A stretch of 32,000 bases of DNA from an archaeon (GTDB lineage: Archaea; Iainarchaeota; Iainarchaeia; Iainarchaeales; CSSED10-239): contig DAOOON010000002.1 of the NCBI GenBank assembly GCA_035387745.1, positions 5,109 through 37,108 of the forward strand, read 5' to 3'. The translations under genes were made by a program, and so were the position numbers. Below, piece by piece: positions 2,746-31,774 of the stretch. The notes below the pieces were generated by a model. That model was not told the DNA's origin and made no database searches. It saw only the letters and a list, made by a program, of their open reading frames with translations. Position 1 is the stretch's first letter, and the number at the start of each line of letters is the position of its first letter.

Positions 2746-3060
2746 CTATTGGTTACCAAGCATCTTTAATAAATCTTCGTAGCCTCCACCTTCTTCTTTT
2801 GGCGCTCCGCCTTTCTTAAAAATGGCTACAAAAACAATTATCAAAATACAAACTCCAAAAATAATTAACCAAAATTGCGGTATCTCCGCAGTAGTTATAA
2901 ATAACATTACTGCTAACAGAAAAACTAAAAGCAGATTTATTAGCCCTGGAAAAAATATAGAATAAAGTATTACAATAACTGGTGCAAAAAAATAATAATT
3001 ATATTGAAAAGAAAAAATAATAAGTATTCCAATAACAAAAAAACTTAAAAAATCAAACAT
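2746..3060 (-). CDS. Small integral membrane protein
   Basis: 104-aa ORF with about three hydrophobic helices and a Gly/Glu-rich tail. It lies immediately downstream of 3062-3328 on the same strand. Confidence 0.5.
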   Translation of the reverse strand: MFDFLSFFVIGILIIFSFQYNYYFFAPVIVILYSIFFPGLINLLLVFLLAVMLFITTAEIPQFWLIIFGVCILIIVFVAIFKKGGAPKEEGGGYEDLLKMLGNQ

Positions 3061-3061
3061 G

Positions 3062-3328
3062 TTATTTTTTTACTCCTGCCCAACCTTTTATTGTATTTTT
3101 TAAATCGCTTCCAAATACCCAGTATATCCCAACACCGATTGCAACTAACCAGATTAAATCCGGATATCTGTAAAATAAAAGGAAAACTAAAAAACCAGTA
3201 ATTAATATTGCAATTAATTCATTACCTATTTGTTTTTTTGCCCAAACATAAATAGAAATAGAAAAAACAATGAATAATATTATCCAAATAGAATCTTCTA
3301 GAGAGGTTACTAAAATAATACTATTCAT
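3062..3328 (-). CDS. Small integral membrane protein
   Basis: 88-aa ORF with three predicted hydrophobic helices, 15 nt downstream of rpl15e. Confidence 0.5.
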   Translation of the reverse strand: MNSIILVTSLEDSIWIILFIVFSISIYVWAKKQIGNELIAILITGFLVFLLFYRYPDLIWLVAIGVGIYWVFGSDLKNTIKGWAGVKK

Positions 3329-9045: not shown

Positions 9046-9645
9046 TCATTTCTTCACATATGCTTTTGTTATTATTATGTCTTCTATTGGCCAATCTTCG
9101 TGACCGCCTTTAGTTCCGGTCTGTACGCCTTCAATTGCTTTAACTACTTCCATACCAGAAATTACTTTACCAAAAACAGCATAACCTGGATTACCTGGTG
9201 TGTAATTTAGAAAATCGTTATCTACAGTATTTATGAAAAACTGAGAAGTTGCTGAGTTTGGAGCATTTGTTCTTGCCATAGCTATAGTGCCTTCTGTGTT
9301 GTATAGACCGTTATTTGATTCTAAGACTATTGGACTATTGGTGTCTTTTTGAACACCAGATATTGTAAAGCCCCCACCCTGTATCATAAAGTCCTTTATT
9401 ACTCTATGAAAAACTAGGCCATCATAATGACCAGAATTAACATATGCTAAAAAATTAGCAGTAGTTATTGGTGCATGATTTGTATCAAGCTCGATTTCTA
9501 TATTACCTTTTGTTGTTTCTAAAATTACTATTGGAATCACATTCATATTTTTATCCTTTTTTAATATTGAAAATATATTGATTAGCAAAACAATTAAAAT
9601 GATTGCTAAAATTACAAAAATTACAATTAATTTTTTATTTTTCAT
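9046..9645 (-). CDS. Cyclophilin-type peptidyl-prolyl cis-trans isomerase with N-terminal membrane anchor
   Basis: 199 aa. N-terminal TM/signal anchor, then FHRVIKDFMIQGGGF, GTIAMARTN.PNSATSQFFIN and GYAVFGKV motifs. Confidence 0.9.
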   Translation of the reverse strand: MKNKKLIVIFVILAIILIVLLINIFSILKKDKNMNVIPIVILETTKGNIEIELDTNHAPITTANFLAYVNSGHYDGLVFHRVIKDFMIQGGGFTISGVQKDTNSPIVLESNNGLYNTEGTIAMARTNAPNSATSQFFINTVDNDFLNYTPGNPGYAVFGKVISGMEVVKAIEGVQTGTKGGHEDWPIEDIIITKAYVKK

Positions 9646-10151
9646 GCATTCACCTTTTTCTTTTCTAATTTATTAACAATTGGAACAAAATAATTTTCTA
9701 TAACAAAACTTACATTATCAATAATCTCATTTAAGGTTTTATTTATTATTTTCTCCCATTCTTTTATTTCTTTTTCTATTTTCTCTATATTTTCTTTATC
9801 ATCAGAATGTGAAATAACATAAAGCCTTAACTGAAAAACAAAATCCGAAAGATTATCTTTCAAAGACATTAATTGATATCTTAATTTTATAGTTTTTTTA
9901 GCACTATCATATACAAATCTTGGATGGCTGTTTTTCTTGTATACCCCGGAAACAAATGGATCGATTATATGCATAAATTTAGTTTTAATTTCTGTAATTG
10001 TATCCATTAAATCAACTGGCTTTTTTATTGGCTTTGTTTTAATATCTAGAGTCTTATGAATATTCTTAATATCTAAATCTAGCTTTGGCTCAATCTTTTT
10101 TAAGTGGCCTGGCTTTTTTAGTCTTATTTTTTCGCGATATTTAAAGGGCAT
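9642..10151 (-). CDS. Hypothetical protein (Lys-rich N-terminus, helical C-terminus)
   Basis: 169-aa ORF. Its stop overlaps the PPIase start (ATGA). It starts 13 nt downstream of tRNA-Thr. Confidence 0.5.
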   Translation of the reverse strand: MPFKYREKIRLKKPGHLKKIEPKLDLDIKNIHKTLDIKTKPIKKPVDLMDTITEIKTKFMHIIDPFVSGVYKKNSHPRFVYDSAKKTIKLRYQLMSLKDNLSDFVFQLRLYVISHSDDKENIEKIEKEIKEWEKIINKTLNEIIDNVSFVIENYFVPIVNKLEKKKVNA

Positions 10152-12036: not shown

Positions 12037-12651
12037 CTAGTATCTATTATTGCTTTCTATTATCTTTTTCATTTTCTCAACACGATAATCAATTCCTTTC
12101 GTGTCCCCAAATTTTAATTGAGAAAACTTACTTTTGATGATTTGATATTCATTAAAAGAATTAACTAAATTAGTCAATATTTTTTCTCTTTGCTTATCAC
12201 TTAATTTATTTAAATTTTTTCCTTCAGATTCTAATACTCTTTCATAAAGAGACTGAAGTTTATTCCCAATCGCCCTTTCAATAAAACTCTGGGCAGTTCT
12301 TGTGTCTTGTCTAAACTTTTCAACAGCTTCTTCAAATTTTAGTATTGGCTCATTTACTTTCTTTCCGGCTTTTATTTCAGAAATATAATCTAATTCTGCA
12401 TTAGCCATTGCTTCAAAATGTTGTAATACATCATAATTTTTACTAACTTCTGTAAATTTTTCAGAAAGTAAAGCAGTGCCTAATTTCATTTTTTGTACTT
12501 GTATTTTTAATTCTCGTAATTTATTTGCATCTTTAAGTAATTTGGTCTTTACTTTTTCAGGAATTGCTGGTCTTTTTACAATTTTTCCGTGTTTTTTCTT
12601 TTTTTCAGCTTTTTCTTTTGGCTTTGGCCTAACGCCTGCAAATTTTGGCAT
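12037..12651 (-). CDS. Hypothetical protein (Lys/Pro-rich N-terminus, helical body)
   Basis: 204-aa ORF with N-terminus MPKFAGVRPKPKEKAEKKKKHGKIVKRP, followed by predicted long helices. Confidence 0.5.
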   Translation of the reverse strand: MPKFAGVRPKPKEKAEKKKKHGKIVKRPAIPEKVKTKLLKDANKLRELKIQVQKMKLGTALLSEKFTEVSKNYDVLQHFEAMANAELDYISEIKAGKKVNEPILKFEEAVEKFRQDTRTAQSFIERAIGNKLQSLYERVLESEGKNLNKLSDKQREKILTNLVNSFNEYQIIKSKFSQLKFGDTKGIDYRVEKMKKIIESNNRY

Positions 12652-14377: not shown

Positions 14378-14468
14378 ATATTTTACCCCCTTTATCCTAT
14401 AAATATATAAAAGCATAAATATTAAATATATTGTTATAATATATCTATTGTAAAAAAGTGTGAAAAAG

Positions 14469-15296
14469 ATGACTGAAAAAATAATTGAAGAACTAAGTCA
14501 AATAAAATTTAAAGCAACAACCATCTATGAGTCCTTTAAATATCCTTTACATCGTACAAATAAAACACAAAGAATTCCTTTGTTAAAAAATATAAAGAAT
14601 AATATTGAGGAATTAACTAGACTATTAAATGGGCTTTTAGGTTATTCGTCTATACAATTTAATAAAGAAATTGAAGCAGAAAAGATCAGGCTGTTCCAAA
14701 ACGTATTTCTGGAAATATCAGGTAAACTACAACAATCAATCTTTTTAGAAGAACACACCACAATTGTAGAAAATGATCTTGTAAATATAAAAAATGAAAT
14801 TGCAACTCCTGAGAAATACTTTGAAATAGAACAATCTGTTAAAAACAATATAAATAACCTTATTATTTTTATTGATGATGCAAAAAAACAAATTGATCAC
14901 AAATATGTTAGTCTTGCAAATCAAAAAAGATCTGTTGAAGAGTTATTAAAAACACTTGAAAGAAAAGATCAAACAATATTGGAACTAAACAAAAGGATTG
15001 ATGAACTCAATTGGATAGATGCAAAAGAAAAAGCAAAAACTTCAAGACTTGCAAATTTAGAAGAAGAATTACTTAAAACCTATAAAGCAAATGAACAGGA
15101 TCTTACCATTTTAAAGTTGCACATAATACATATTGAAAAGGCCCTAGATAATCTTTTAAGAGAATCAAAATCATTAACTCAAGATATTAATCATCTAGAG
15201 GCAAAAAACATATTAAAAGAGCAAGCATCATTGGAATTGATTAAAGAATTAAAAAAAGAATTGATTGCAGCAAAATATAATTTAAAAAATAAGTGA
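14469..15296 (+). CDS. Hypothetical coiled-coil protein
   Basis: About 275 aa from the first ATG; the ORF track begins at GTG 14460. Heptad-rich and Lys/Glu/Leu-rich throughout, with no TM segment. First gene of a three-gene run. Confidence 0.5.
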
Positions 15297-15302
15297 TAAA
15301 TA

Positions 15303-16829
15303 ATGTCTGAATATGATCCATTTGGCGGTAGATTTCCACAAGACTCCGAAAAACCAAAATCTAATTTTAAATTAGATGAAAAAACAATTGGGCTAATTAA
15401 GAAAGTAATTATTTTAGTCGTGGTTTTAGGTGTTATTGGGGGCGCGATTTATTTTTTCTTTTTTAATAACATTATAATTAATTTCTCTGTAAAAGACACA
15501 GAAGGGAAGGCATTAAATTCTGCAAACATAAAAATCACTCCTGAGAAACAAAATAAATCAATTCAATATTCTCCAGGAGATGAAATAAAATTAAATAAAA
15601 ATAAAAATTATAAATATGCAATTGAATTAAAAGGATATAAAACAATTAATGGGCAATTAGCTCCTAAAGACATCGTAGAACCAAACCAGGCCATTAAATT
15701 AGAAAAAGACATTAGACTAGATGTTCTTTCTTTTATTTGCCCAACAGACGTATTTATTGGGCAAACTGTTAAATGCGAATTACAATTAAATAACATTAGC
15801 GAAAATGAGGACTATAATCTAGAAAATTTAATTTTTAGAGACGATAAAGATAAACCGCTTAAAAACTGGGCTGATTTAAATGATGAATTCTTAAGATTTG
15901 TAGACGGATTTGATGCAGAAGTCCCTAGCACCAAAATAATTACACACAAAACTAAAGACACTGTTTTTATTTTATTTAGTGTGCCAGAAAGTATTAAACG
16001 CGGAACAACACAAAAAATTATGGCAAGAATTAAGTACACAGATAATAATGCAATTCAAGAAATAAAAATATCTCAAGCGCCCAATATAGGGTTTACTTCT
16101 GAACTGAGTAGTGCTTTAAATTTAGAAAGCGGAAATGAAATAATTAAAACATATACAATTGATAACTCTAAAAATAAAACAGATCTATCGGGATTAGAAC
16201 TAGAAATCGATGCAAATTATGAGCCCACAACTGGAGAATTAGATTCTAATTTCGATATAGCCGAAATAATAGTGCCAGATTATACCACCCTAAATGTAAA
16301 TGCATCTTCGCGTTCACAAGGACAAATAACTATTAAATTACCTAATAATTTAAGGGCGGGAAAAATCACAGGAATTTTAGCATTAAACAGCCCCATTTTT
16401 TCTGAACCAAAAAAAATCACATTTACAATTAATATAAAGGAACCAGAAAATAAATTTAATATAAGTCTAAATAAAAGTACAGAAACGTTAGATTATGATG
16501 CAAACACTAATATTACAACTATTAAACAGATAACTTTAAATTTAGATAACAAGAACAAAATTCCAGTTCATATAAATTCAATTTATATTGAAAACTCAAC
16601 AGGAACAACAGATTGTAATCATTGGATAGTTCTTCCTACAGAATATAATGGTTATGACATTCAATCAAATTATAATCCAGCGCCTATAATTTTATTACAA
16701 GGATCGGACCTAGGCTCTTTAACAACAATAACTGGATTAAAGATTTGTAATATTAATGTAGATTATAGACATCCATATTTAGATGAAAATATAATTATTA
16801 AAAATAAGATACAAATAAGTGTAAATTAA
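15303..16829 (+). CDS. N-terminally membrane-anchored surface protein (PEGA/CARDB-like beta domains, inferred)
   Basis: 508 aa. Short cytoplasmic head, one TM (VIILVVVLGVIGGAIYFFFF), then Asn/Thr/Ile-rich beta-type sequence. FSVKDTEGKAL...ELKGYKTINGQL resembles a PEGA/carboxypeptidase-regulatory-like unit. Confidence 0.55.
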   Translation: MSEYDPFGGRFPQDSEKPKSNFKLDEKTIGLIKKVIILVVVLGVIGGAIYFFFFNNIIINFSVKDTEGKALNSANIKITPEKQNKSIQYSPGDEIKLNKNKNYKYAIELKGYKTINGQLAPKDIVEPNQAIKLEKDIRLDVLSFICPTDVFIGQTVKCELQLNNISENEDYNLENLIFRDDKDKPLKNWADLNDEFLRFVDGFDAEVPSTKIITHKTKDTVFILFSVPESIKRGTTQKIMARIKYTDNNAIQEIKISQAPNIGFTSELSSALNLESGNEIIKTYTIDNSKNKTDLSGLELEIDANYEPTTGELDSNFDIAEIIVPDYTTLNVNASSRSQGQITIKLPNNLRAGKITGILALNSPIFSEPKKITFTINIKEPENKFNISLNKSTETLDYDANTNITTIKQITLNLDNKNKIPVHINSIYIENSTGTTDCNHWIVLPTEYNGYDIQSNYNPAPIILLQGSDLGSLTTITGLKICNINVDYRHPYLDENIIIKNKIQISVN

Positions 16830-18851
16830 ATGGACTATATTGATTGGATAATTTCTAGTGTTTTATTTATTACAGTTATTGCATTTGTACTTATTAGTTT
16901 ATTTAATATTTTACCTAAATCAAACAACACAAATACAATCAGTGATTTACTATATAAATCTACAATCTCTCTGATTATTCCGGTTTATAATGTTTCTATG
17001 ATTTCTGAAGATTCAGAAGTGTACCCTTATGTTATTTCAGACTGTAATTATGGTAGAGCAGAAAACACATTTGAAATCGATACAAACAATAATTTGTTAT
17101 TTGGATTGATTTATGATAAAGATAAATTCTATAATTATGAAACAGACATTAATGCTTTATCTGGTCTTGGAGTACGATTATTATTAGAAAACTTTAATGA
17201 TTATAATTATCAAGACACTTTTGATTTAAATTCAGGAACCGCAAATATAAGTTCTGGAATTTTAGAGCTAGAGGCCGGTTCAACAATAGACACAACAATA
17301 GAATTTTCTAAATATCTTGGTTCATTTGTAACAAATGCAGAAGATATAAACGTATATATTAATTTTGATACTACAAGCGACAGATTTTATTGTAGTTTTA
17401 ATGAAACAGGCGTCCAGCTTTTTAAAATTGGAGAATCAGAAGCAATTGAAGAAAATAATACTACTCTAAAAACGACAAACTGGAGAAAATTAAATTTTGG
17501 ATATTACAGGGACTTTGAGGGATTTTCCTGGTTTTTTTGTGGAATTGGCGAAAACATTAATATCCTAGAAACCTCTAGCCAAACACATCCCGAAGAAACC
17601 ACAATAAGAATTGAAGCAATAGATGATCAAACTTATATAGATGATTTTAGGGTCTATAAAAGTTTAATTAATATAACAGAACATGATGGCACTACAGTTA
17701 AAACAGATTCATTAAGAACAACAGTAACTAGCGCAGATATGAGAGTAGAATTCTATGAACTGTCCGAAATGGATGCTAATGAAGTATTGGGGTGTGCTCT
17801 GTCTTTTTCCACTTCAAGTGGAAATTTAAATAATTATAATGAGGGGCCAATTAAAATTTTCTCAAATGATTCAAATCAAAACAAATTAGTTTTCTTTCCT
17901 ATAGCAAAAGAATTTTGGATATATAAGTATACTGGAGAAGATCCAATTACTATTACTTATATAGTTGATGAAATTAAACCGTATAATTTTGGTTCTGCAA
18001 CAGAAAACGGGCAATTTGTAGATTTAAATAAAATACCAGGAAGCTATGCTGTGCCTGTTTCCTTTGTTCCTGAAAATTCTTTTACAACAGAAAATTTTGG
18101 TTCTTTTGATGTGAACTTTAATAAAGTTTTTTCTGAGATTACGCCAACAGGCGGTGGTTCTGAAACGCCAATTATACAATATTGTAAAGTTGAGGGATGT
18201 AGCGATATTACCAGTGATTCTAATTTTATATTTGATACTGATACAAACACGGCAGAAGTGATTTTTAAATTTCCGGAAGAAACTGTTGCTAATCAACCAT
18301 TTAATATTGTTATTATTTTTAACTATTTTAATTTAGAAAATTTAGAAAATGCTACCGGAGAGGCAACGGTGCTTGATGGCACACAGCTTACTGCAAGGGT
18401 CTCAGCAGAAGAAATTATAATTGATACAAATCAATTTTATTTATATAATATTTTTAATCCTATTTATCCAAACATTAAACAAACAATAATATTTGATGTC
18501 TTTGATAATACAGGATTACATGCACAGGATTGTAACTTCTTTATAAATTGGGGTTCTCAAAATATAGTTGTAACTTGCGATGAAAATTATTTACTTAAAG
18601 TTAGATATAGATTTACTGATTTAAATAATACCATTTTAGATTATCCAAATCTATCAATCACAAAGACTAACGAAAGAATTGTGACACAAGAACATTTTGA
18701 GAATTTATCTTGTGATTCTTATTTTGTAAATATTAAAAATAAAACATTAGATGTTAACTGTGGTATTGGAGTTAATCCTAATTATAAAATGATTATAAAA
18801 TATCTTCATAATACGGGATTATTAGAAAATGCAGACATATATATAAAATAA
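16830..18851 (+). CDS. Large N-terminally anchored surface protein with LamG/ConA-like segment (inferred)
   Basis: 673 aa. Its ATG abuts the previous TAA. N-terminal hydrophobic helix. NWRKLNFGYY...IRIEAIDDQTYIDDFRVYK resembles the C-terminal strands of LamG-like jelly-roll domains. Confidence 0.55.
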   Translation: MDYIDWIISSVLFITVIAFVLISLFNILPKSNNTNTISDLLYKSTISLIIPVYNVSMISEDSEVYPYVISDCNYGRAENTFEIDTNNNLLFGLIYDKDKFYNYETDINALSGLGVRLLLENFNDYNYQDTFDLNSGTANISSGILELEAGSTIDTTIEFSKYLGSFVTNAEDINVYINFDTTSDRFYCSFNETGVQLFKIGESEAIEENNTTLKTTNWRKLNFGYYRDFEGFSWFFCGIGENINILETSSQTHPEETTIRIEAIDDQTYIDDFRVYKSLINITEHDGTTVKTDSLRTTVTSADMRVEFYELSEMDANEVLGCALSFSTSSGNLNNYNEGPIKIFSNDSNQNKLVFFPIAKEFWIYKYTGEDPITITYIVDEIKPYNFGSATENGQFVDLNKIPGSYAVPVSFVPENSFTTENFGSFDVNFNKVFSEITPTGGGSETPIIQYCKVEGCSDITSDSNFIFDTDTNTAEVIFKFPEETVANQPFNIVIIFNYFNLENLENATGEATVLDGTQLTARVSAEEIIIDTNQFYLYNIFNPIYPNIKQTIIFDVFDNTGLHAQDCNFFINWGSQNIVVTCDENYLLKVRYRFTDLNNTILDYPNLSITKTNERIVTQEHFENLSCDSYFVNIKNKTLDVNCGIGVNPNYKMIIKYLHNTGLLENADIYIK

Positions 18852-18867
18852 AAAGAACAATTTCTAA

Positions 18868-19032
18868 TTAGATTATTGCTCTAAGAATGAGGATAACGAT
18901 AGCAATACCTAAAGATAAACCTATTACTGCTTCTGGGGATAATTGCGGACCTGCTACAGACTCCTTAAATTTCATAATTCCTATAGCTGAACTGGGACCT
19001 TGATTATTATTTTTAGAATAATTCATCTTCAT
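18868..19032 (-). CDS. secG: Preprotein translocase subunit Sec61beta (archaeal SecG)
   Basis: Hand-translated 54-aa ORF absent from the track: MKMNYSKNNNQGPSSAIGIMKFKESVAGPQLSPEAVIGLSLGIAIVILILRAII. It matches the Sec61beta pattern SAG(L/I)x(R/K)(Y/F)xE...P.(L/V)sPe.Vi plus a C-terminal TM. Confidence 0.65.
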   Translation of the reverse strand: MKMNYSKNNNQGPSSAIGIMKFKESVAGPQLSPEAVIGLSLGIAIVILILRAII

Positions 19033-19116
19033 AAATTTATCACAATTTAAATAGAACTATATATATTTAAAGAAACCAAAACCTTTTATATTAATCTATT
19101 TTATATTTTATTAGGG

Positions 19117-20055
19117 TTGAAGGGTATGGTAGAGCAGAAACAATCAGAATATAAGTGGCTGGTAAGAATAATATTTCTTTTAATAATTATAGTTGCGGCA
19201 TTATTTGTATTTATTTGGACAGGAACTATAAGGTGCAGATCTATACCTGGCGGCTGCAACGTGTACTGGAGCGTTATGACTATAGTTACAGGAAAACAAC
19301 AACCGAGCGTTCTAATTTTATATGACCCTACAGATCAGAAAGGTCTGGGTAATCCCGAACTATTAAAAGATTTGCTGACTGATCGAAAAGGGGTGGCAAT
19401 ACACCCTTCCCTTGCGGATATTCGATACCTTAATTCTGAACAATTAAAGAACGTAAGTCTTGTAGTTGTAGAAAAGGCAAGAAAAATTTCTACGCTTCAA
19501 TTAATGACTATGCGAAACTATATCGCACAAGGCGGAAGAATTGTTTGGATTGGAGATGCAGGAATAGAACACAATGAAGATAAAGGAGATTTGCTATATG
19601 TTGGCCCAGAAAACGAAAAAAAAAATGGATGGGTCAGATTAACAGATGCAAATATGATTATATTTTTTAACAGAACTCTAGGGGTTAATTATGTTGCAAA
19701 TTTTTGCGATATAAGAGATTGCGATGTTGGGGATAAATTTACTGGAAAGTTAATGCCAAGTTCAGACACTCATCCGTTAGTTTATGGTTTAAAACCAAAT
19801 CTCCCAATCTCTGATAATTATTCTATAGTGACCTTGATAGAACCTAATCCCGTTCCTTTAAAAATAGATTTTGGAGCAAATCTGCGAGATACAAATAATA
19901 ACGGTTACGGAGACATATTTGATGCCATAGTGACCAGCAATTCAAATAGAGTGGCTTACTATGCTATCCCCCCTGAATATCTTGCAGAAGACAAAGATGG
20001 AGAAAACAAATATTTTTCTATTATTTATAATATGTTTGAGGGAATGGTAAATTGA
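19117..20055 (+). CDS. N-terminally anchored hypothetical protein, compositionally distinct
   Basis: 312 aa. The start is uncertain (TTG at 19117 or ATG at 19126). One TM, Cys pairs (RCRSIPGGC, FCDIRDC), and alternating strand/helix blocks VLILYDP / SLVVVEKA / GGRIVWIGDAG. Confidence 0.55.
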   Translation: MKGMVEQKQSEYKWLVRIIFLLIIIVAALFVFIWTGTIRCRSIPGGCNVYWSVMTIVTGKQQPSVLILYDPTDQKGLGNPELLKDLLTDRKGVAIHPSLADIRYLNSEQLKNVSLVVVEKARKISTLQLMTMRNYIAQGGRIVWIGDAGIEHNEDKGDLLYVGPENEKKNGWVRLTDANMIIFFNRTLGVNYVANFCDIRDCDVGDKFTGKLMPSSDTHPLVYGLKPNLPISDNYSIVTLIEPNPVPLKIDFGANLRDTNNNGYGDIFDAIVTSNSNRVAYYAIPPEYLAEDKDGENKYFSIIYNMFEGMVN

Positions 20056-20056
20056 C

Positions 20057-20410
20057 ATGACAAAATCTTTTGAAGTCGCAATTTCTATCATTTTGCTTTT
20101 ATTTTTTGTTTTTTTTTTATTTGAAACTATAAATCAGAAATATTCTCAAAATCCTATACCAGAAGAAGTTAAAACCATAATTTTATTAGAAGCTAGAGAT
20201 TCGGGATTTAGGGAACTTATCTCTAACTCTGAAGTTGATAATGTCTATTCTTTACTTTATCCGCAAATGGATTATAGATTTAATGTAAGCATTTGTGATT
20301 GGTTAGATGATAATTGTGAAAATAGAGAATTAGAGAATTTCGCAAAAAAAAGAGAATTTGTGTATTTCTTTTCTGATACTAATAAAACCCTTCATATTGA
20401 ATTAGATTAA
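20057..20410 (+). CDS. Small pilin-like protein (class III signal-like N-terminus)
   Basis: 117 aa. MTKS|FEVAISIILLLFFVFFLF: a short charged head, a small residue, then a hydrophobic helix of about 20 aa. It starts 1 nt after the preceding stop. Confidence 0.45.
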   Translation: MTKSFEVAISIILLLFFVFFLFETINQKYSQNPIPEEVKTIILLEARDSGFRELISNSEVDNVYSLLYPQMDYRFNVSICDWLDDNCENRELENFAKKREFVYFFSDTNKTLHIELD

Positions 20411-20422
20411 AGGAGCAATAAT

Positions 20423-20902
20423 TTGAAAAAAGGATTTACATACATTGTAACTACAATGTTACTTATAATACTTATAAGTGGGGTTGTTATTGTATCTAAT
20501 TATAACGCCCCAGGGAATAAAATAAACCCTGTAGCAATACTTGCAAAAAACTATGAAAACGAGTTCTTAAATATTTTAAACTCTGGTTCATCTGTTGAAG
20601 ACATTAATCAATTTAATTATAGATTTAAGAAATTTATAAACAGCAATAATTATGATTCTAAATTGTGTAATTTAATTACTACAGAGAATGGGATTATTGC
20701 AAGCAATTTTATGGACCAAAATTGTGATTTAATGATAAATGGAGTATCTAATCAAACAATTACAGAGAATAACACAATTATAACAGATATATTTATAAAT
20801 GATACGAATATATATTTATGTAACTGTTATTATAAGGCAGGAGAGAATATCTATTATATAGATATTTATAATGAGAACTCAAAAACTACATTTAAAAATT
20901 AG
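20423..20902 (+). CDS. Small pilin-like protein (class III signal-like N-terminus)
   Basis: 159 aa. TTG start 7 nt after AGGAG. MKKG|FTYIVTTMLLIILISGVVIV resembles the K-G cleavage context of type IV pilin/archaellin precursors. Confidence 0.5.
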   Translation: MKKGFTYIVTTMLLIILISGVVIVSNYNAPGNKINPVAILAKNYENEFLNILNSGSSVEDINQFNYRFKKFINSNNYDSKLCNLITTENGIIASNFMDQNCDLMINGVSNQTITENNTIITDIFINDTNIYLCNCYYKAGENIYYIDIYNENSKTTFKN

Positions 20903-20912
20903 AGGGGATATT

Positions 20913-21263
20913 ATGAAGAATGTAACTGAACTATTAAATCAGATAGAAGAAAGAACTAACATAATTGTTGCAAAATTAGAAATTTTAAGATTTGCAGAAG
21001 AAGATGTTCAGACAATTAAAAAATCATTAGAAGTAATTAAAAAGAAACTTGAATCTGGAGAAATAAGTAAATTTTCGTATGCCACAATGCTAGAAATAAA
21101 CAAAAAAAGAGCAATGGAAAATACCAATTCCAAAAAGAAAACGTGGGATGAAGTTGCAGAATCCATAAATGAAATAAGCGATTTACTAAATGACTTAAAA
21201 GATACATTCAATGCTAAAACAGAATTTGAGGGAATAGATGAAATTAAAACATCAAAGTCTTAA
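20913..21263 (+). CDS. Hypothetical small coiled-coil protein
   Basis: 116 aa from ATG 20913, preceded by GAGGGG; the ORF track starts at 20871. Helical and Lys/Glu-rich. It lies directly upstream of the ATPase. Confidence 0.5.
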   Translation: MKNVTELLNQIEERTNIIVAKLEILRFAEEDVQTIKKSLEVIKKKLESGEISKFSYATMLEINKKRAMENTNSKKKTWDEVAESINEISDLLNDLKDTFNAKTEFEGIDEIKTSKS

Positions 21264-21296
21264 ATTATTATTTAAAATCGAATATAAAGATGAGCC

Positions 21297-23279
21297 ATGA
21301 AAATACCAAATCAAAAGGATGCATCAAAACTTTATGACCTAATTCTTAATCTTAAAAATATCGAAAATCAAAGAACTGCAAAAGAACAAGAAATATTAAC
21401 TAAATTCTATAATCAAGAACTAGATTCTAAAAAACTAGTTTCTGAATTAAAGAAAGAAAAATTATTTTCTAATTCTAAAAAATTAGATTTGAATTTTATT
21501 AACACATTTATTGAATATAGCAAACAACTAGAATTTCTTTCCGAAAACATAGATGTAACTACTATAAAAGAATATAAATTAACTAAAAGACCAGCACCTT
21601 TTATTTTAGGATTAAAAAAAATATTTTCTTCAAAAACTACCAAAATTAGCGAAAAAAAGAAATCTGCAAAACCAAAATTAGTGGAAGTTAACCCAAAAGA
21701 GAAAAAACAACAACAAAATATATTCCAAAGCCTTTTTAAAAATCTTAAGACAGATAAAGAAACCATAAAAATTAAAGAAAATGCTAATCCGTTGCCTTCT
21801 TTTGAAGAACCAAAAGAATTGTTACCAGAGAACTATCAAATATTAATTGAGGGCTATGCCTATGCATTTGTTGAAGAAAAAGAAGGTTCCAGAAGATATG
21901 TTGTTGCAGAACCTGAATTAACCTCAGCTGAAGAAAAAATACTTAAAGAGACAAAACAAGAATTAATAAATAAAATATCACTTATTGAAATAAAAGACGA
22001 ATCTGAATTAATAAAAAGAATAGAAAAAATATTTAATAAAACAAAGATTACTCCTCAACAAAAATCAAAAATAATGTATTATGTAGGCAGACAGATTAAA
22101 GGGCTAGATCTTATAGAACCATTAATGCACGACCCGTTAATTGAAGATATAGAATGCGATGGAACAGGCATTCCAATATTTATTGTTCATAGAAAATATG
22201 GCCATCTTGAAACTAATATTGCATACAAAGATGAAAAAGAACTACAACAGTTTGTAATTAAGATGGCGCACTTAAGTAAAAGCTATGTTTCATATGCTAG
22301 CCCTTTACTTGATTCTATACTTCCCGACGGTTCTCGTGTTAACGCTACACTTACAACTAACGTTTCAACTAGAGGCCCAACATTTACTATAAGAAAATTC
22401 CCACACACCCCTTTAACCGCAATTGATTTAATTACTAGCGGCACATTAAACCCTATGATTGTCGCGTATATTTGGACAATAATGGAATTTCAAAAAACTG
22501 CATTAATAATTGGGCCAACAGCTGGCGGGAAAACTACATTATTAAATGTTATTACTTCTTTTATTCCTCCAGGAAGAAGAGTTGTTTCAATTGAAGATAC
22601 TAGAGAAATAAATTTACTTTTAGATAACTGGGTACCACAAATAACTAGACCCGGGTTTGGCCCCCCTGATGGAACTGGCAAAAAATACGGGGAAGTTACG
22701 ATGCTTGATCTTATTAAAGAATCATTTAGACAAAGACCAGATTATTTAATTGTAGGGGAAGTCAGAGGAGAAGAAATGTCAATCATGTTTCAGGGCATGG
22801 CATCTGGTCACTGTTGTTTGTCTACTGTTCACGCAAGAAGCCTGCCTGACCTCGTAAACCGACTTATAACCCCACCAATATCTCTTGAACCAGCACTATT
22901 AACTTCTCTTGACCTTGTTATTGTTACTGGATTTGAAGGTGGCAGCGACATAAAAAGAACAATAAAAGAACTAGATGAAATTAAAGGATTTAATTCTAAA
23001 GAAAATAAAATAGAATATACGGCAATATATAATGTTTATGAACGCTCTCAAGAAAAAGACGGGGATTTATTCACACACGAACTGCCAATTACCTATAAGA
23101 GCGAAATTTTACAATCTATTGCTAGAGAATATAATATTAATATAAACCATTTATTAGAAATGATAAACAAAAGAATCAAATTTGTAGAAGAATTAACCAA
23201 AAATCCCCCAAAAGACTATGTTGAATTTAAAATTGCAATAAATAAATATAAATTGCAAGAAAAAGTAATTACTAATTAG
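21297..23279 (+). CDS. Type II/IV secretion-family ATPase (archaeal FlaI/ArlI/PilB-like) with long N-terminal extension
   Basis: 660 aa. DPLIEDIECDGTGIPIFIVHRKYG, LPDGSRVNATL, RGPTFTIRKF, Walker A GPTAGGKTTLLN, EDTREI, RQRPDYLIVGEVRGEE and GHCCLSTVHA. The first ~180 aa are Lys-rich and lie outside the conserved core. Confidence 0.9.
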   Translation: MKIPNQKDASKLYDLILNLKNIENQRTAKEQEILTKFYNQELDSKKLVSELKKEKLFSNSKKLDLNFINTFIEYSKQLEFLSENIDVTTIKEYKLTKRPAPFILGLKKIFSSKTTKISEKKKSAKPKLVEVNPKEKKQQQNIFQSLFKNLKTDKETIKIKENANPLPSFEEPKELLPENYQILIEGYAYAFVEEKEGSRRYVVAEPELTSAEEKILKETKQELINKISLIEIKDESELIKRIEKIFNKTKITPQQKSKIMYYVGRQIKGLDLIEPLMHDPLIEDIECDGTGIPIFIVHRKYGHLETNIAYKDEKELQQFVIKMAHLSKSYVSYASPLLDSILPDGSRVNATLTTNVSTRGPTFTIRKFPHTPLTAIDLITSGTLNPMIVAYIWTIMEFQKTALIIGPTAGGKTTLLNVITSFIPPGRRVVSIEDTREINLLLDNWVPQITRPGFGPPDGTGKKYGEVTMLDLIKESFRQRPDYLIVGEVRGEEMSIMFQGMASGHCCLSTVHARSLPDLVNRLITPPISLEPALLTSLDLVIVTGFEGGSDIKRTIKELDEIKGFNSKENKIEYTAIYNVYERSQEKDGDLFTHELPITYKSEILQSIAREYNININHLLEMINKRIKFVEELTKNPPKDYVEFKIAINKYKLQEKVITN

Positions 23280-23281
23280 AT

Positions 23282-24589
23282 TTATTTAAAAGGGTCTCTT
23301 CTATTAAACAAGTATTCTGGATCTATGTCCTTTGATTTTGTTTTTTGTTTTGGCTTATTTTTTATTTTGATTTTCTTTACTAAAGTTATACTCACTAGAA
23401 CCACAATTGTTGCAACAATAATATAAATAAAATATTTTGTTAAGTCCTGAGTTTCAATCTCATTAATCCCTGCATCCTTTATTTTTTTTACTTGATTTTT
23501 TGCCAGTTTTATCTTGCTTATACTCTCTTCATACCTGCCTTTATTATATAATTCTTTTATTTGAGCATAATTTTGACTTAATTCAGATACAGTTTTTGTG
23601 TCTTTCCATAAATTTATATTTTCTGAATTTAGTATTTGATTTATGGAATTATCTAGTGTGCCTTTTAAATCTGTATTAAAATTATATAGCAAAGATTTTG
23701 CAACATAATAATTTTGTCTAGTCTCTAGAGTTTGTTGTAAGATCTCTAAGGGACTATTGGGCCCTGCTTTTTCAAAATCAGCAATCACTAAAGAATAGAA
23801 CTGATTTGTTGATGCAAGGCTATCTGTTATCGTAGAAATGTCCCCGTTTAAGTTATTTGGAGCTTCAATATAGCTCAGGATTATCTTTTTTGTGGTTTCA
23901 TCTAATTTTTGATCTGCAACTATAACTTCAACAATCTCATTAGTTGAATCTCGGTAATTTATAGAAGATGAAACAATATCGTTATACCCCTTAAACGTAT
24001 TTTTATATAATAATATCAAACTATCTGCTTTTGTACAATCGGTAGTATCTAAAAACGTAGATTGTTCTTTTTGTAATTTACTAAGCTTTGTTTTCATGTC
24101 TTGTAATTGATTAATTAATAATTCTAATTTATCTTTTGTGTTCTGACATTTTGTAGTTATTGAAGAAGAATAATTTGATCTAATAATTCCGTCTAATTTT
24201 GCGGATTTTGATTGCAAGGTTATATTTAAATTATCTATTTTGTCAACTAATTGCTGAGACAAATAGTTGTTTCCACTTTTGGTTTTTATATTTCTATTAA
24301 GTAAGGCCGTTTTAATGATATTTTGGGTATTTGTATTTATTTCATAAATAACAGACCCATTATTTGATTCTATAGGCAAAAATAACACAATATTTGATTC
24401 TGCATCAACAATATTTAGTGTATAATACTCGTTATTATCGCAATCAATATAGTAAACACTGCCAGGATCTAAATATTCATTATTTGACAACATATATTCT
24501 TTAGCAATATCCTGTGCCGAATATAAGGAAATGGCTTGTGCCATCGGAATTATAAACAACAAAAACATGACAGCAATAATTTTTTTCAT
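23282..24589 (-). CDS. Secreted, C-terminally anchored helical protein
   Basis: 435 aa. Signal peptide MKKIIAVMFLLFIIPMAQA, a small N-terminal beta-rich domain, a long helical middle, a C-terminal TM and a Lys-rich tail. Its start overlaps the upstream stop (ATGA). Confidence 0.55.
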   Translation of the reverse strand: MKKIIAVMFLLFIIPMAQAISLYSAQDIAKEYMLSNNEYLDPGSVYYIDCDNNEYYTLNIVDAESNIVLFLPIESNNGSVIYEINTNTQNIIKTALLNRNIKTKSGNNYLSQQLVDKIDNLNITLQSKSAKLDGIIRSNYSSSITTKCQNTKDKLELLINQLQDMKTKLSKLQKEQSTFLDTTDCTKADSLILLYKNTFKGYNDIVSSSINYRDSTNEIVEVIVADQKLDETTKKIILSYIEAPNNLNGDISTITDSLASTNQFYSLVIADFEKAGPNSPLEILQQTLETRQNYYVAKSLLYNFNTDLKGTLDNSINQILNSENINLWKDTKTVSELSQNYAQIKELYNKGRYEESISKIKLAKNQVKKIKDAGINEIETQDLTKYFIYIIVATIVVLVSITLVKKIKIKNKPKQKTKSKDIDPEYLFNRRDPFK

Positions 24590-25560
24590 TCTTCCTCTTC
24601 TTTAAATATTTTATTGAACAAATATACTATTGCTGCAAATATTAAAAAAACTATTGATAGGCCAGTATAAACGAAAGAAGAAAATGCTAATGCAAAGAAA
24701 AATGCAAAATTGCTTTCTATAAAACCCATAAATGGAATTGCCTTTATTGTGTCTATGATTTTGACTTTAATAACTGGCGCATCAAGATCTGGCATTAGTT
24801 CTTTTATTTCTGCAGTTGTTTTATTTGCTGCTGCAGAGGTTTTTAGATTTTCCATAAAATCAGTAAAATCAGAAGAAGTTTCATCTGTTTTTATTCTTAA
24901 TTCCAAATATTCTCTAGATTCCATAATATATTTTAAATTAGACAAAGTGCACTGCTGGTTTATTATATATGAGGTGCTAATCCAGGGGTCAATATTATCT
25001 GCAATAAATAGATTTACAAGACCTGCTTCGAATTCTTCTACTTTTTTATTTTGCTCTGGAAGAATATATATTGCAGAAGAAATGAATAATCCAATTATTA
25101 AAAATATAGTTAATTTAGATAAATAATCTGTTGTTTGATTAAACAAATTTTTCTCAGATGTTTTTTTAACTATTAAACACAAAATAAGATGTGCTGATAT
25201 ATATAATATTAGAAATAAAATAAAATAAATATTAAGCTTTAAAAATATAACCGAAAAAATAAAAGACAAAAATAAACCGACACCAACAATGATTAAACTT
25301 TCTTTTTTTACAGAATTATATATGATTGATAAAATAATTATGGAAGTTATAGGAAAAAATATCACAAAAAATAGAAAATTTAGAGAAAATATAGAATTAA
25401 GTATTGTCGCTATATCAAATACCCTGAAAGCATAAGCCGTTAACTTAGAAGAAATCAAAAAATAAATCCAAAAAAATGAAGAGAACGTAACAATTAATAA
25501 TTTTATTAGATGTTTAGAATTAAATTCCATTGCACCTTTTTTATTTATCATAAATTCCAC
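24586..25560 (-). CDS. Polytopic membrane protein, unknown function
   Basis: 324 aa. The start is uncertain (GTG at 25560 or ATG at 25551). About five N-terminal TM helices, a soluble segment of about 110 aa, then C-terminal TM(s). Confidence 0.5.
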   Translation of the reverse strand: MEFMINKKGAMEFNSKHLIKLLIVTFSSFFWIYFLISSKLTAYAFRVFDIATILNSIFSLNFLFFVIFFPITSIIILSIIYNSVKKESLIIVGVGLFLSFIFSVIFLKLNIYFILFLILYISAHLILCLIVKKTSEKNLFNQTTDYLSKLTIFLIIGLFISSAIYILPEQNKKVEEFEAGLVNLFIADNIDPWISTSYIINQQCTLSNLKYIMESREYLELRIKTDETSSDFTDFMENLKTSAAANKTTAEIKELMPDLDAPVIKVKIIDTIKAIPFMGFIESNFAFFFALAFSSFVYTGLSIVFLIFAAIVYLFNKIFKEEEE

Positions 25561-26486
25561 TATTCAATTATTTCATTTATATTTATTAGATCTATCATTT
25601 CTTGATTTTCTTTATCATAAACAAATGTTGTTTCTGCTTGAGAAACATAAGAGCCATTTCTATCAATTAACACAGGATATGCAGATATTGCCTGCGCTTT
25701 TAATAGTTCTCTAAATGCAACTTTCCTATCAAAGCTTGACAGGTTTTTCCCTACCCAAAATTCGGAAAATGCCATACCTTCAAAGCTTTTGATTTCTTCT
25801 AGTATTTTTCTTGCATTTGAGTTTCTTATTGAAACATCTTTTTCAAAAATAAAGATATAGACGTTGCTTCCTTCTGTCACATATCCATTACCAGTACTAG
25901 AGAATGGTTCTATTGCAAACCAAGAATCAATTTCTGATAATTTAATATTAATATTATTTTTTACATTTGGTATTGATGGGTGGTTGTGAGTTGTATATCT
26001 TGTAATGGTGTGGCCAGTTAGATTACTTATTGGCTTATAACCATAACCTTTGATTGTATCTTCTATAATTTCCCCAACTTTTGAAACAGTTACAATTTTA
26101 GGATTTTTAAGAATATAATCTTTTGAATTTAATAACGCTTTATCGCTTGACTCTTTTAATTTTTCATGAATTTTAGAAAAAACAAAAGTTTGAGAAGAAT
26201 CTGTAATATAGCCATCAATTGAAACGCCAACATCAACTTTTAAAACATCTGTTTCTTTAAGAATTACTTGCTCTTCGGGGTTATAAGAATTGTGTGCAGC
26301 CTCTTGGTTTATAGAAAGGTTAACTGGCCAAGCTGGTTTTGCGCCTTTCTCTTTTATGTAATTTTCTATTTCTGCCCCTATCTCTAAAAAAGAAATGCCT
26401 GGTTTAACTATCTTTTTTGCGAATTTTTGTGCGCCATTATTTATAATCCCTGATTTCTTTAAAATGTCGATTTCTGTTTTGTTCAT
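25560..26486 (-). CDS. map: Methionine aminopeptidase, type 2 (archaeal)
   Basis: 308 aa. PGISFLEIGAEIENYI, AWPVNLSINQEAAHN, DVLKVDVGVSIDGYITDSSQT and the inserted helical subdomain typical of MetAP2. Confidence 0.9.
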   Translation of the reverse strand: MNKTEIDILKKSGIINNGAQKFAKKIVKPGISFLEIGAEIENYIKEKGAKPAWPVNLSINQEAAHNSYNPEEQVILKETDVLKVDVGVSIDGYITDSSQTFVFSKIHEKLKESSDKALLNSKDYILKNPKIVTVSKVGEIIEDTIKGYGYKPISNLTGHTITRYTTHNHPSIPNVKNNINIKLSEIDSWFAIEPFSSTGNGYVTEGSNVYIFIFEKDVSIRNSNARKILEEIKSFEGMAFSEFWVGKNLSSFDRKVAFRELLKAQAISAYPVLIDRNGSYVSQAETTFVYDKENQEMIDLININEIIE

Positions 26487-26977
26487 TTTTTTTCTTTTTT
26501 ATTTGTTAAAAAAACTACCGCAATAAAAGCAACAATAAACCCAAAATATATTGGCATATCTGGAATTGGAACATTCTTTTGTGCTTGTTTAATCATAAAC
26601 CAAATTTGGCCAATGTTATTTATTGGATTATCATCATCTTCTAATATTGTTGCTCTAATAAGGTGTTGAGCAGTAGATGCATTCGAATCTGGAATAATAA
26701 TGTTAACAAAAATATTATTGGAATCATTTGCTCCAATGCTTATTGCATTTCCCTCAAAATAATTTCTATCAAAAATCTGGACTGCTTGAGGGGTAAATAC
26801 TTCTATTCTTAAATTTACATCTTGGGTAGTACTAGAGGTGTTAACAACAATAACATTAATATCAAAATTTGTATCTTCAATTACTGCTTTTGGTGCAATT
26901 ATCTCACCTATGTAAAAATCAGCAAAAATTGTGCCAGACATTAGTATTAAAAATGCAAATATAAATATTTTTTTCAT
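26483..26977 (-). CDS. Secreted CARDB-like protein with C-terminal TM plus basic tail
   Basis: 164 aa. Signal peptide, a single beta domain ending ATILEDDDNPINN (a CARDB-style E/D..NN signature), then PIPDMPIYFGFIVAFIAVVFLTNKKEKK. Confidence 0.5.
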   Translation of the reverse strand: MKKIFIFAFLILMSGTIFADFYIGEIIAPKAVIEDTNFDINVIVVNTSSTTQDVNLRIEVFTPQAVQIFDRNYFEGNAISIGANDSNNIFVNIIIPDSNASTAQHLIRATILEDDDNPINNIGQIWFMIKQAQKNVPIPDMPIYFGFIVAFIAVVFLTNKKEKK

Positions 26978-30365: not shown

Positions 30366-31196
30366 TTAAACGGAAATTTGATTCTCTATAATTAAATTAT
30401 TGTTTATGCAAGAATAGTCATTTACCTTTATATCTAATGCCTTAACTCGTTTTATAGTTAAATCTAAATATTTCTTATCTAAATCAATACCAATATATCT
30501 GCGATTATACAATTTAGATACAATGCCTGTTGTCCCAGAACCATTAAATGGGTCTAATACTAGATCTCCTTTGTCAGTTGTGGATAAAACAATTCTTTTC
30601 AATAATTCTAATGGTTTTTGGGTGGGGTGTTTACCCGATCTTTTTTCCAGTTGAGGTGTTAGAGGTATCCACCAAACACTTCTCATTTGTTTTCCTGATT
30701 CACTAATCTTATCTTCCCATTTTTTCATAAGTTCATAATTAAATTTGTGTTTAGATCCTTTTTCTTTTCTTGCCCAAATCAAAGTTTCGTGGCTATGAGC
30801 AAAATATCTACAACTTAAATTTGGCGGGGCATTAGGTTTAAACCAAGAAATTTCATTAAGTATTTGATAATCTAATATTTGTAATGCATAACCAACTTGA
30901 TAAATGTTGTGCATTGTTCCGGATATCCAAATACTTCCTGTATCTTTTAAAACTCTTCTACACTCAGATAACCAGTCAAATGTAAATTCAAAATCTTTAA
31001 CAACCCCGTTTGATTTATCCCAATCTGCTTTATTTACTGAAACCATTTTACCGGCTTTACAAGAAACGCCGCCATTTGATAAAAAGTACGGGGGGTCTGC
31101 AAAAATAAGATCTACTGAATTGTCTGGCATTTCTTTTAATATTTTAATACAATCTCCTTGATGAAGATTAAAATCAAGAGAATTATAATAGTTCAT
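30366..31196 (-). CDS. Beta-class N6-adenine DNA methyltransferase, DpnA / M2.MboI-like
   Basis: 276 aa. IFADPPYFLSNGG, VSVNKADWDK, WISGTMHNIY, PNLSCRYFAHSHETLIWARK, GKHPTQKPLELLKRI and LDPFNGSGTTG closely follow my recollection of DpnA. Confidence 0.85.
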   Translation of the reverse strand: MNYYNSLDFNLHQGDCIKILKEMPDNSVDLIFADPPYFLSNGGVSCKAGKMVSVNKADWDKSNGVVKDFEFTFDWLSECRRVLKDTGSIWISGTMHNIYQVGYALQILDYQILNEISWFKPNAPPNLSCRYFAHSHETLIWARKEKGSKHKFNYELMKKWEDKISESGKQMRSVWWIPLTPQLEKRSGKHPTQKPLELLKRIVLSTTDKGDLVLDPFNGSGTTGIVSKLYNRRYIGIDLDKKYLDLTIKRVKALDIKVNDYSCINNNLIIENQISV

Positions 31197-31198
31197 AA

Positions 31199-31228
31199 AG
31201 ATATATACAATTAGTTATTTATATATCT
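31199..31228. promoter_or_regulatory. Perfect 9-bp inverted repeat (AGATATATA-12 nt-TATATATCT) just upstream of the methyltransferase ATG
   Basis: Read directly from the sequence. On the minus strand the distal arm sits about 24-32 nt before the ATG, which is TATA-box spacing for a leaderless transcript. It could also be an operator. Confidence 0.3.
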
Positions 31229-31252
31229 TTTGGGGGTAGTTGTCCAGTGGCA

Positions 31253-31774
31253 TTATGGTTTAGGCAAACCTAAAAATTCCAAGGGTATTTCATTAAAGAA
31301 ATAATAACAATTTACTGATTTTATATAATCTAAAACATCTTTGTATTCTAGTTTTTTGAACCAATCATTTAACAGATAAGTGTATTTAACTTTGATATTT
31401 AATGGTTTAAATAATTTGTTATATTGTTTATTCTTAAAATCGCAAGTCTGTAATTTTTCATCTACAGAACCAGCCACTTCTTGAAATTTAATTTCTATAA
31501 TAAATAGTGTGCGTTCTTTCAATACAAATATAGCATCATCAGGCAATAACTTTTTAGAAATATAATTCAAATAATTTATGCCACTTGGTTCTAAAAAATT
31601 TTTATAAATTTTGTGTTTTTGATAAAAGGTAGCAATCTTTTTACCATTAAAGAAAATATCGTCGTTCTTTATGTCATATCCTTTAATTTGAGTAAATAAT
31701 TGCTTTAACGAAATTCTTTCTTCAAATCTAAGTCCAGTAATGGTTTTCCCTCCACCGACGCCACTTTTTATCAT
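31253..31774 (-). CDS. Putative type II restriction endonuclease, PD-(D/E)xK fold
   Basis: 173 aa. LLPDDAIFV...LFIIEIKFQ gives a PD...(D/E)xK arrangement. The gene is sandwiched between two DNA methyltransferase genes on the same strand. Confidence 0.45.
   Translation of the reverse strand: MIKSGVGGGKTITGLRFEERISLKQLFTQIKGYDIKNDDIFFNGKKIATFYQKHKIYKNFLEPSGINYLNYISKKLLPDDAIFVLKERTLFIIEIKFQEVAGSVDEKLQTCDFKNKQYNKLFKPLNIKVKYTYLLNDWFKKLEYKDVLDYIKSVNCYYFFNEIPLEFLGLPKP

Follow-up and report, generated by a model that had tools for sequence, protein, structure and literature searches.

A probable rearranged type IV pilus gene cluster in a lineage of Iainarchaeota

Genes of the ATPase locus

The subject of this work is a block of genes around a type IV pilus assembly ATPase in 32 kb of archaeal DNA, which we call the window. 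The window makes up the first 32 kb of an ENA contig of 55.7 kb, its 5' end lies at about the contig end, and its content of guanine plus cytosine is ~29%. It encodes L15e, L35Ae, Nop56/58, fibrillarin, Spt5, aIF-2B, and FtsZ. A first-pass annotation had described eight same-strand open reading frames (ORFs) in two runs, and all eight were found on the plus strand where it had placed them. The abutting stop and start (TAA/ATG) that it reported between the genes for proteins of 508 and 673 amino acids (aa) was verified at 16827-16832. The starts at 14469 (275 aa), 19126 (309 aa), 20913 (116 aa), and 25551 (321 aa) are backed by orthologue lengths and gene callers. From its corrected start at 19126, the family A protein is 309 aa, compared to the 312 aa first annotated. 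Since a minus-strand Sec61beta gene sits between the two runs, they are separate transcription units. In archaeal DNA this rich in AT, a scan for bacterial promoters and terminators gave no usable signal, as 56 sites were detected where 57 were expected. The features of the locus are as follows (L numbers, here and below, label contigs and loci used for comparison).

14469-15296, plus strand: 275-aa cytoplasmic coiled-coil protein, variable accessory (no transmembrane [TM] segment; 37% identity to the L007 orthologue)
15303-16829, plus strand: 508-aa N-anchored, beta-rich surface protein, variable accessory (one TM segment, residues 26-60)
16830-18851, plus strand: 673-aa large surface protein (W673), putative adhesin (orthologues and a family hidden Markov model, HMM)
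18868-19032, minus strand: Sec61beta, 54 aa (gene callers on public contigs and the ORF list)
19126-20055, plus strand: family A, 309-aa anchored protein, first gene of the ATPase operon (clade-specific)
20057-20410, plus strand: family B, 117-aa leaderless pilin-like protein (alignment and homology)
20423-20902, plus strand: family C, 159-aa pilin-like protein with a class III signal peptide (alignment and homology)
20913-21263, plus strand: family D, 116-aa cytoplasmic coiled-coil protein (position directly 5' of the ATPase gene)
21297-23279, plus strand: type IV pilus assembly ATPase of the FlaI/GspE/TadA family, 660 aa (Pfam T2SSE)

Among the eight ORFs, the 660-aa ATPase alone matched a curated family in Pfam or NCBIfam; the Pfam scans took in every named window ORF of at least 60 aa. 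The match was to T2SSE (E = 4e-30). The Walker A motif GPTAGGKTT (aa 406-414), the Asp box, the Walker B motif RPDYLIVGEVRGEE (aa 480-493), and the His box are intact, and the catalytic boxes are kept in 12 window-type relatives. These data identify an assembly ATPase of the VirB11/TadA/FlaI family with intact motifs, as found in archaeal type IV pilus systems, and confirm the FlaI/GspE-type ATPase of the first-pass annotation. Its closest solved homologue is A. fulgidus GspE (2OAP/2OAQ; E = 1.6e-92 for 2OAP), with which it has the Walker A and B motifs and the Asp and His boxes in common. The archaellum ATPase FlaI/ArlI (4II7/4IHQ), a member of the same superfamily, came behind it (E = 1.4e-69 for 4II7). 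With the NCBIfam BasE model, the ATPase scored 213.4 bits against a cut-off of 1000, which ruled out the bindosome assembly system.

The alignment to 2OAP spans residues 178-650 of the ATPase. In contrast to A. fulgidus GspE, the window ATPase has an extra N-terminal region of about 177-190 residues, which is lysine-rich, fast-evolving, and predicted to form a coiled coil. Within the clade, identity is 31-78% for this extension (21297-21866) and 72-95% for the catalytic domain. A mis-assembled repeat-containing region was described in a "secretion-related ATPase" in the genome paper on Candidatus Forterrea (PMC5905446), and this may be the same kind of region.

Neighborhoods were gathered via the ATPase and via family A (31 metagenomic loci) and annotated with HMMs of our own families. 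An identical ATPase was found on 8 public contigs, and full-length relatives were 54-87% identical. In every window-type locus examined (>25, several of them on contigs of 0.25-0.98 Mb), the order W673-A-B-C-D-ATPase is kept, with a minus-strand Sec61beta gene after W673. The approximate sizes in these loci are ~310 aa for A, ~120 aa for B, ~155 aa for C, and ~115 aa for D. After the ATPase, on the opposite strand, come F (~440 aa), G (~320 aa, a membrane protein), MetAP, H, L11, Spt5, SecE, and FtsZ. Thus, the neighborhood that the first-pass annotation had singled out is conserved in its gene order. In every window-type locus the Sec61beta gene lies between the adhesin gene and the ATPase operon, and SecE is ~9 kb off, beside Spt5. 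Among the genes called, no Sec61beta counterpart was present at this position in the sister loci described next.

Counterparts in sister loci and candidate pilins

Classical pilus clusters hold ATPases of ~47-55% core identity to that of the window. They were found at L010, L011, and L012 and at 14 loci from GTDB genomes, most of which are named "Candidatus Iainarchaeum archaeon". The 14 loci were located by scanning the genomes for sister-type T2SSF, the family of the platform protein, with two strict peptide patterns. The gene order in the sister loci is a B-like gene, a C-like gene, a gene for a ~250-aa protein with the motif RG/VSPLIS (the slash marks the cleavage position here and below), a coiled-coil protein gene, the ATPase gene, and two T2SSF genes. 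The ~250-aa protein has a weak DUF7289 match. Upstream lie Pilin_N-type pilins (KG/VSPLIA) and a giant LamG/FG-GAP protein. The family HMMs recovered B, C, and D in the 14 T2SSF-containing loci. The earlier view that the window has a locus of the type IV filament kind and comes from a DPANN archaeon was upheld; relatives carry the name Candidatus Iainarchaeum.

Class III-like N-termini were present in families B and C alone among all window ORFs of at least 35 aa. The family C protein starts with MKKG/FTYIV followed by a hydrophobic helix, which is a canonical class III signal peptide, and a seven-sequence alignment (A6) shows no variation in the Gly at -1. The motif [KRN]G/[FY][TAM][YF][IV] was found in all window-type loci listed (>20), and the sister loci have [KRN][GA]/Q. 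The length of the leader is highly variable, and a conserved motif combined with a variable leader is the signature of a processed class III signal. Family C is also homologous to L010_8333 of a classical locus (E = 3e-7, via the L008 orthologue). Judging from its sequence, the 159-aa protein is a putative minor pilin.

The family B protein is leaderless, and its start, MTKSFEV..., runs directly into a hydrophobic helix. There is no in-frame start further upstream since the ORF opens 1 nt past the preceding stop. The residues M1, E6, R52, C80, C87, and N109 are invariant in alignment A5, and nearly all members start with M-x-K-[STV]-x-E; the sister homologue in L011 has an RRRG/F leader. The clade orthologue in L007 is homologous over its full length to L010_7935 (E = 6e-9). 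This suggests that the 117-aa protein is a putative minor pilin that would not need signal cleavage. Both small proteins had been called pilin-like in the first-pass annotation; a conserved class III signal peptide was found in the 159-aa protein, and the 117-aa protein has none.

Family D has no TM segment and is encoded directly upstream of the ATPase in all window-type loci. A counterpart of ~108-115 aa is found at the same position in the T2SSF-bearing sister loci L010, L012-L016, and L026. We infer that family D is a putative accessory or regulatory subunit associated with the ATPase. W673 also has a leaderless pilin-like N-terminus, MDYIDWI and then a hydrophobic helix. Its orthologues at the same position start with M[DE][YH]IDW and carry Laminin_G_3 or DUF2341 domains. 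The W673 family HMM matches the first ~230 and the last ~110 residues of a 2,211-aa FG-GAP/LamG protein in sister locus L012, and the leaderless N-terminus M-[DE]-[YH]-I-D-W plus helix is common to the W673 family and this L012 adhesin. These similarities point to W673 as a putative pilus-associated or tip adhesin.

Families B, C, and W673 are, therefore, homologous to genes of bona fide complete pilus loci, and D was recovered there by its HMM. Since all four have homologues or counterparts in sister loci, these seemingly unknown proteins can be recognized as components of an ordinary type IV pilus cluster of archaea. The genes had been described as unannotatable, which holds for Pfam and NCBIfam and does not hold for these four, which correspond to classical pilus-locus components in related genomes. 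Nor is the locus the best candidate for an undescribed system, as had been suggested, because its complete form, with the ATPase, two T2SSF genes, and Pilin_N pilins, exists in sister lineages. The sister layout is the ancestral form of the cluster. Compared to it, the window clade has lost the T2SSF pair and the DUF7289-like pilin from the cluster, gained family A at the head of the operon, and received the Sec61beta insertion.

A further pilin is encoded just past the window. JGI contig L033 is 100% identical to the last 1,847 bases of the window and continues for 9.2 kb further 3'. It encodes a canonical 242-aa archaeal type IV pilin that starts MSSKLKIKLKG/IAPIITVILVVVVAVILG (KG/IAPIITVIL...) and carries a CHB_HEX_C_1/Fn3_assoc (chitobiase/Fn3-associated) domain at its C-terminus:

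L033 4252-4980, extrapolated to window ~36217-36945, minus strand: 242-aa canonical pilin, ~13 kb downstream of the ATPase in the same genome

Thus, pilins with a class III signal peptide ([KR][GA]/ followed by a hydrophobic helix) are represented by family C and by the 242-aa protein. Because the cleavage motif is conserved and a canonical pilin is present, a prepilin peptidase is presumably encoded in the genome. The 242-aa pilin gene sits between the Nre and PolB genes, and an AglB/STT3 N-glycosylation gene is close by.

The remaining proteins of the two runs have no counterpart of this kind. Family A was seen in window-type loci only, always directly upstream of family B. It has a single N-terminal TM anchor and an alpha/beta domain predicted to be extracellular, and the motif R-C-x-x-I-P-G-x-C is conserved. 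Identity across the clade is 57-44%, with the Cys residues conserved, and four of five orthologues gave weak, sub-threshold matches to ABC_transp_aux (GldG)/GIFT. A single-sequence AlphaFold2 (AF2) model was too poor for use, with a predicted local distance difference test (pLDDT) score of 46. Family A as a diverged pilin or T2SSF was rejected, as hhalign gave 0.1-1.6% against T2SSF, the DUF7289-like protein, and pilins. The 508-aa protein has no family match in Pfam or NCBIfam. Its orthologues are found in a subset of window-type loci (L001-L003, L007, L035-L037, L042, and L052-L053), and gene packing alone ties this variable accessory to the system. The gene for the 275-aa coiled-coil protein co-occurs with it in the same patchy distribution; the protein is a candidate variable accessory of the system. 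The first-pass annotation had counted both as parts of the locus, which is true of the window and of only some related loci.

Pili of the Euryarchaeal type include the Methanococcus Epd pili and the Haloferax PilB/PilC systems. The locus resembles such pili, which have two TadC-like genes (Clades 1 and 2; PMC4858521), in its GspE/FlaI ATPase, its class III minor pilin-like proteins, and its large adhesin-like protein, with major pilins possibly supplied in trans. The sister Iainarchaeota loci follow exactly this plan, the two T2SSF genes included. The window clade differs from it in four respects: the T2SSF genes lie neither beside the ATPase nor within 10 kb of it, the adhesin and one minor pilin-like protein are leaderless, family A heads the operon, and the ATPase has the ~190-residue N-terminal extension.

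The missing platform and peptidase, and competing explanations

The explanation we favor, with moderate confidence, is that the locus is a rearranged archaeal type IV pilus cluster (of the Tad/GspE type and not an archaellum) of one Iainarchaeota (DPANN) lineage, in which the platform, peptidase, and major pilins are encoded elsewhere. It is most likely a notable lineage-specific variant of an ordinary pilus cluster and not a new machine. The missing parts are probably encoded in trans because there is a canonical pilin 13 kb away and the conserved class III motif implies a peptidase; the machine, which the first-pass annotation took to be reduced or divergent, may not be reduced at all. The strong constraint on the ATPase and pilin-like genes and the presence of canonical pilins were also counted against a true absence of T2SSF. 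Type IV pili of the FlaI/FlaJ/FlaK type have been reported as general in DPANN, including Diapherotrites (PMC8561730), and archaeal modules of an ATPase and TadC can work with pilins encoded in trans (PMC4858521).

A filament of this kind could be assembled as follows. A membrane platform, encoded at another place in the genome, would be driven by the hexameric ATPase, which the 116-aa coiled-coil protein probably modulates. The 159-aa protein would be cleaved by a prepilin peptidase, also encoded elsewhere, and could form a priming or tip complex with the leaderless 117-aa protein and the 673-aa adhesin via their N-terminal helices. Major pilins supplied in trans would polymerize beneath this complex, and one candidate for them is the 242-aa pilin. 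The outcome would be an adhesive filament, plausibly for attachment to surfaces or host cells. In bacteria, minor-pilin/adhesin tip complexes are represented by PilVWX-PilY1 and GspHIJK. By analogy only, the locus resembles these in that the genes for several small pilin-like proteins and a single large one are grouped, apart from that for the major pilin. The window components differ in being archaeal and, in two cases, leaderless, and the likeness claims no sequence homology.

Several results weigh against this explanation. Pfam found no T2SSF (PF00482) on any window ORF or in the 9.2 kb past the 3' end, ~41 kb in all, and no Peptidase_A24, the family of prepilin peptidases such as PibD, FlaK, and EppA, was found in the same sequence. 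The first-pass annotation had likewise seen no platform or peptidase gene near the ATPase. None of the window-type loci has a T2SSF or A24 peptidase gene in the 10 kb around its ATPase. A word-index profile search for T2SSF returned 42 proteins, which were on contigs corresponding to sister-clade ATPases only, and nothing on the contigs of 0.19-0.98 Mb that bear window-type ATPases. The pattern scan of GTDB found sister-type T2SSF in 14 metagenome-assembled genomes (MAGs), none of which has a window-type locus. Both searches leave the absence unproven since they were restricted and would miss a diverged T2SSF. Given these negative searches, the supply of a platform in trans is a proposed step. 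An ATPase apart from its TadC partner is also unusual in archaeal systems (PMC4858521). Finally, no filament has been observed. In the literature on Iainarchaeota and Forterrea pili, nothing specific to this locus was found.

The locus is informative because archaeal type IV pilus ATPases are regarded as traveling with the TadC/FlaJ platform gene that belongs to them (PMC4858521). A clade in which the ATPase is consistently uncoupled from that gene is a useful natural test of the modularity of type IV pili. Some of the minor pilins of this clade are leaderless, too, and its operon has acquired a new extracellular protein. With regard to DPANN biology, the adhesin and the priming complex offer a candidate attachment apparatus, and the variable middle region of the adhesin (LamG, DUF2341, or FG-GAP) may track host or substrate specificity.

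A second explanation, which we consider unlikely, is a machine that has lost T2SSF and has no platform or a different one. The ATPase would be paired with a non-homologous membrane partner, such as family A or another, unrecognized membrane protein, and would assemble or extrude the pilin-like proteins and the adhesin. It would account for the absence of T2SSF from all window-type neighborhoods, from window-type ATPase contigs of up to 0.98 Mb, and, by the pattern scan, from window-type MAGs, and for an ATPase that is still under strong constraint. Family A was gained in exactly the clade without an adjacent T2SSF. The searches in question have low sensitivity for a diverged T2SSF, however, and standard pilus biogenesis in this genome is indicated by the class III motif, which is conserved, and by the canonical pilin close by. 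As a partner, family A is hindered by having a single TM segment, and its Cys motif and the positive-inside rule place its domain outside the cell, so that it could not contact a cytoplasmic ATPase. We know of no type IV filament system that works without a T2SSF-type platform.

In its boldest form, this proposal holds that an Iainarchaeota lineage with genomes of ~0.7-1 Mb has no T2SSF, that the ATPase works with a non-homologous membrane partner, and that leaderless pilin-like proteins do the priming without a prepilin peptidase. We give this form a somewhat lower chance again. If these small genomes really lacked T2SSF, this would overturn a requirement that is presumed to be universal in type IV filament systems. 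A machine with a non-homologous partner would then be the first type IV filament machine independent of T2SSF.

The locus could also be a decaying, non-functional pilus remnant, as it no longer contains the platform genes and one pilin gene and has received an unrelated gene, Sec61beta. This is improbable. All the genes are intact in >25 loci spanning 54-100% ATPase identity, the catalytic boxes are invariant, and so are Gly -1, Glu 6, and the Cys pairs of the small proteins.

Even less probable is that family G, with or without the 435-aa family F protein, is a cryptic, highly diverged platform for the ATPase. The relevant genes follow the ATPase:

23282-24589, minus strand: family F, 435-aa secreted, C-anchored coiled-coil protein
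24586-25551, minus strand: family G, polytopic membrane protein, 321 aa (324 aa in the first-pass annotation)
25560-26486, minus strand: MetAP

Family G is polytopic, with 6 TM segments and a helical soluble domain of ~100 residues, and it adjoins the ATPase convergently in every window-type locus. Since the MetAP-L11-Spt5-SecE-FtsZ block is collinear across the clade, the fact that F and G adjoin the ATPase says little about a functional link. Against T2SSF profiles, hhalign gave family G probabilities of 0.5% and 2.4%. The AF2 model is confident (pLDDT 85), and a Foldseek search with it against the PDB gave no match at E <= 0.001, with best template modeling scores of ~0.2. Sequence searches of the PDB with family G found nothing, and a Pfam scan of 65 members gave no consistent match. 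The family is small: a set of 1.84 billion proteins contained 119 of its cluster representatives. Its distant members are encoded near MetAP and surface proteins (L027) or among unrelated genes (L029 and L030), with no ATPase nearby. These results ruled out family G as a T2SSF platform. The membrane protein had been put forward as a possible partner of the ATPase, and it is neither a T2SSF homologue nor linked to an ATPase outside the collinear clade.

Lastly, an archaellum (motility) locus can be dismissed: the best NCBIfam match of the ATPase is the FlaI model, and JGI names the protein FlaI, but its 331.7 bits fall under the equivalog cut-off of 550, it is closer to A. fulgidus GspE than to FlaI, and no FlaH/ArlH, FlaJ/ArlJ, FlaF/G, or archaellin genes were found by Pfam in the window.

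Other features of the window and flank

The genes for MetAP, family G, and family F are closely packed on the minus strand as one unit in which stops and starts overlap. The helical fold of family G looks novel, and MetAP is its neighbor again in a distant genome (L027).

A strain-variable, restriction-modification-like island lies at window 30366-31774 (minus strand) and L033 8554-9411. It encodes an N4/N6 DNA methylase, a PD-(D/E)XK nuclease-like protein, and a Dam-type methylase. Contig L001, which has the identical ATPase, carries GNAT and radical SAM genes in its place.

The product of the ORF at 12037-12651 (minus strand) is lysine-rich, is 204 aa long, and matches the ALIX V-domain below threshold (PF13949, E = 6.7e-6); the same weak match was found on L001. 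The protein could be ESCRT-related or simply a coiled coil, and FtsZ is encoded in the same genome. Other conserved ORFs, which have no family match, are present on the minus strand at 661-2130, 2746-3328, 9642-10151, and 26483-26977. They encode a soluble protein of 489 aa, two very small polytopic membrane proteins of 104 and 88 aa, a basic protein of 169 aa, and a secreted, C-anchored protein of 164 aa.

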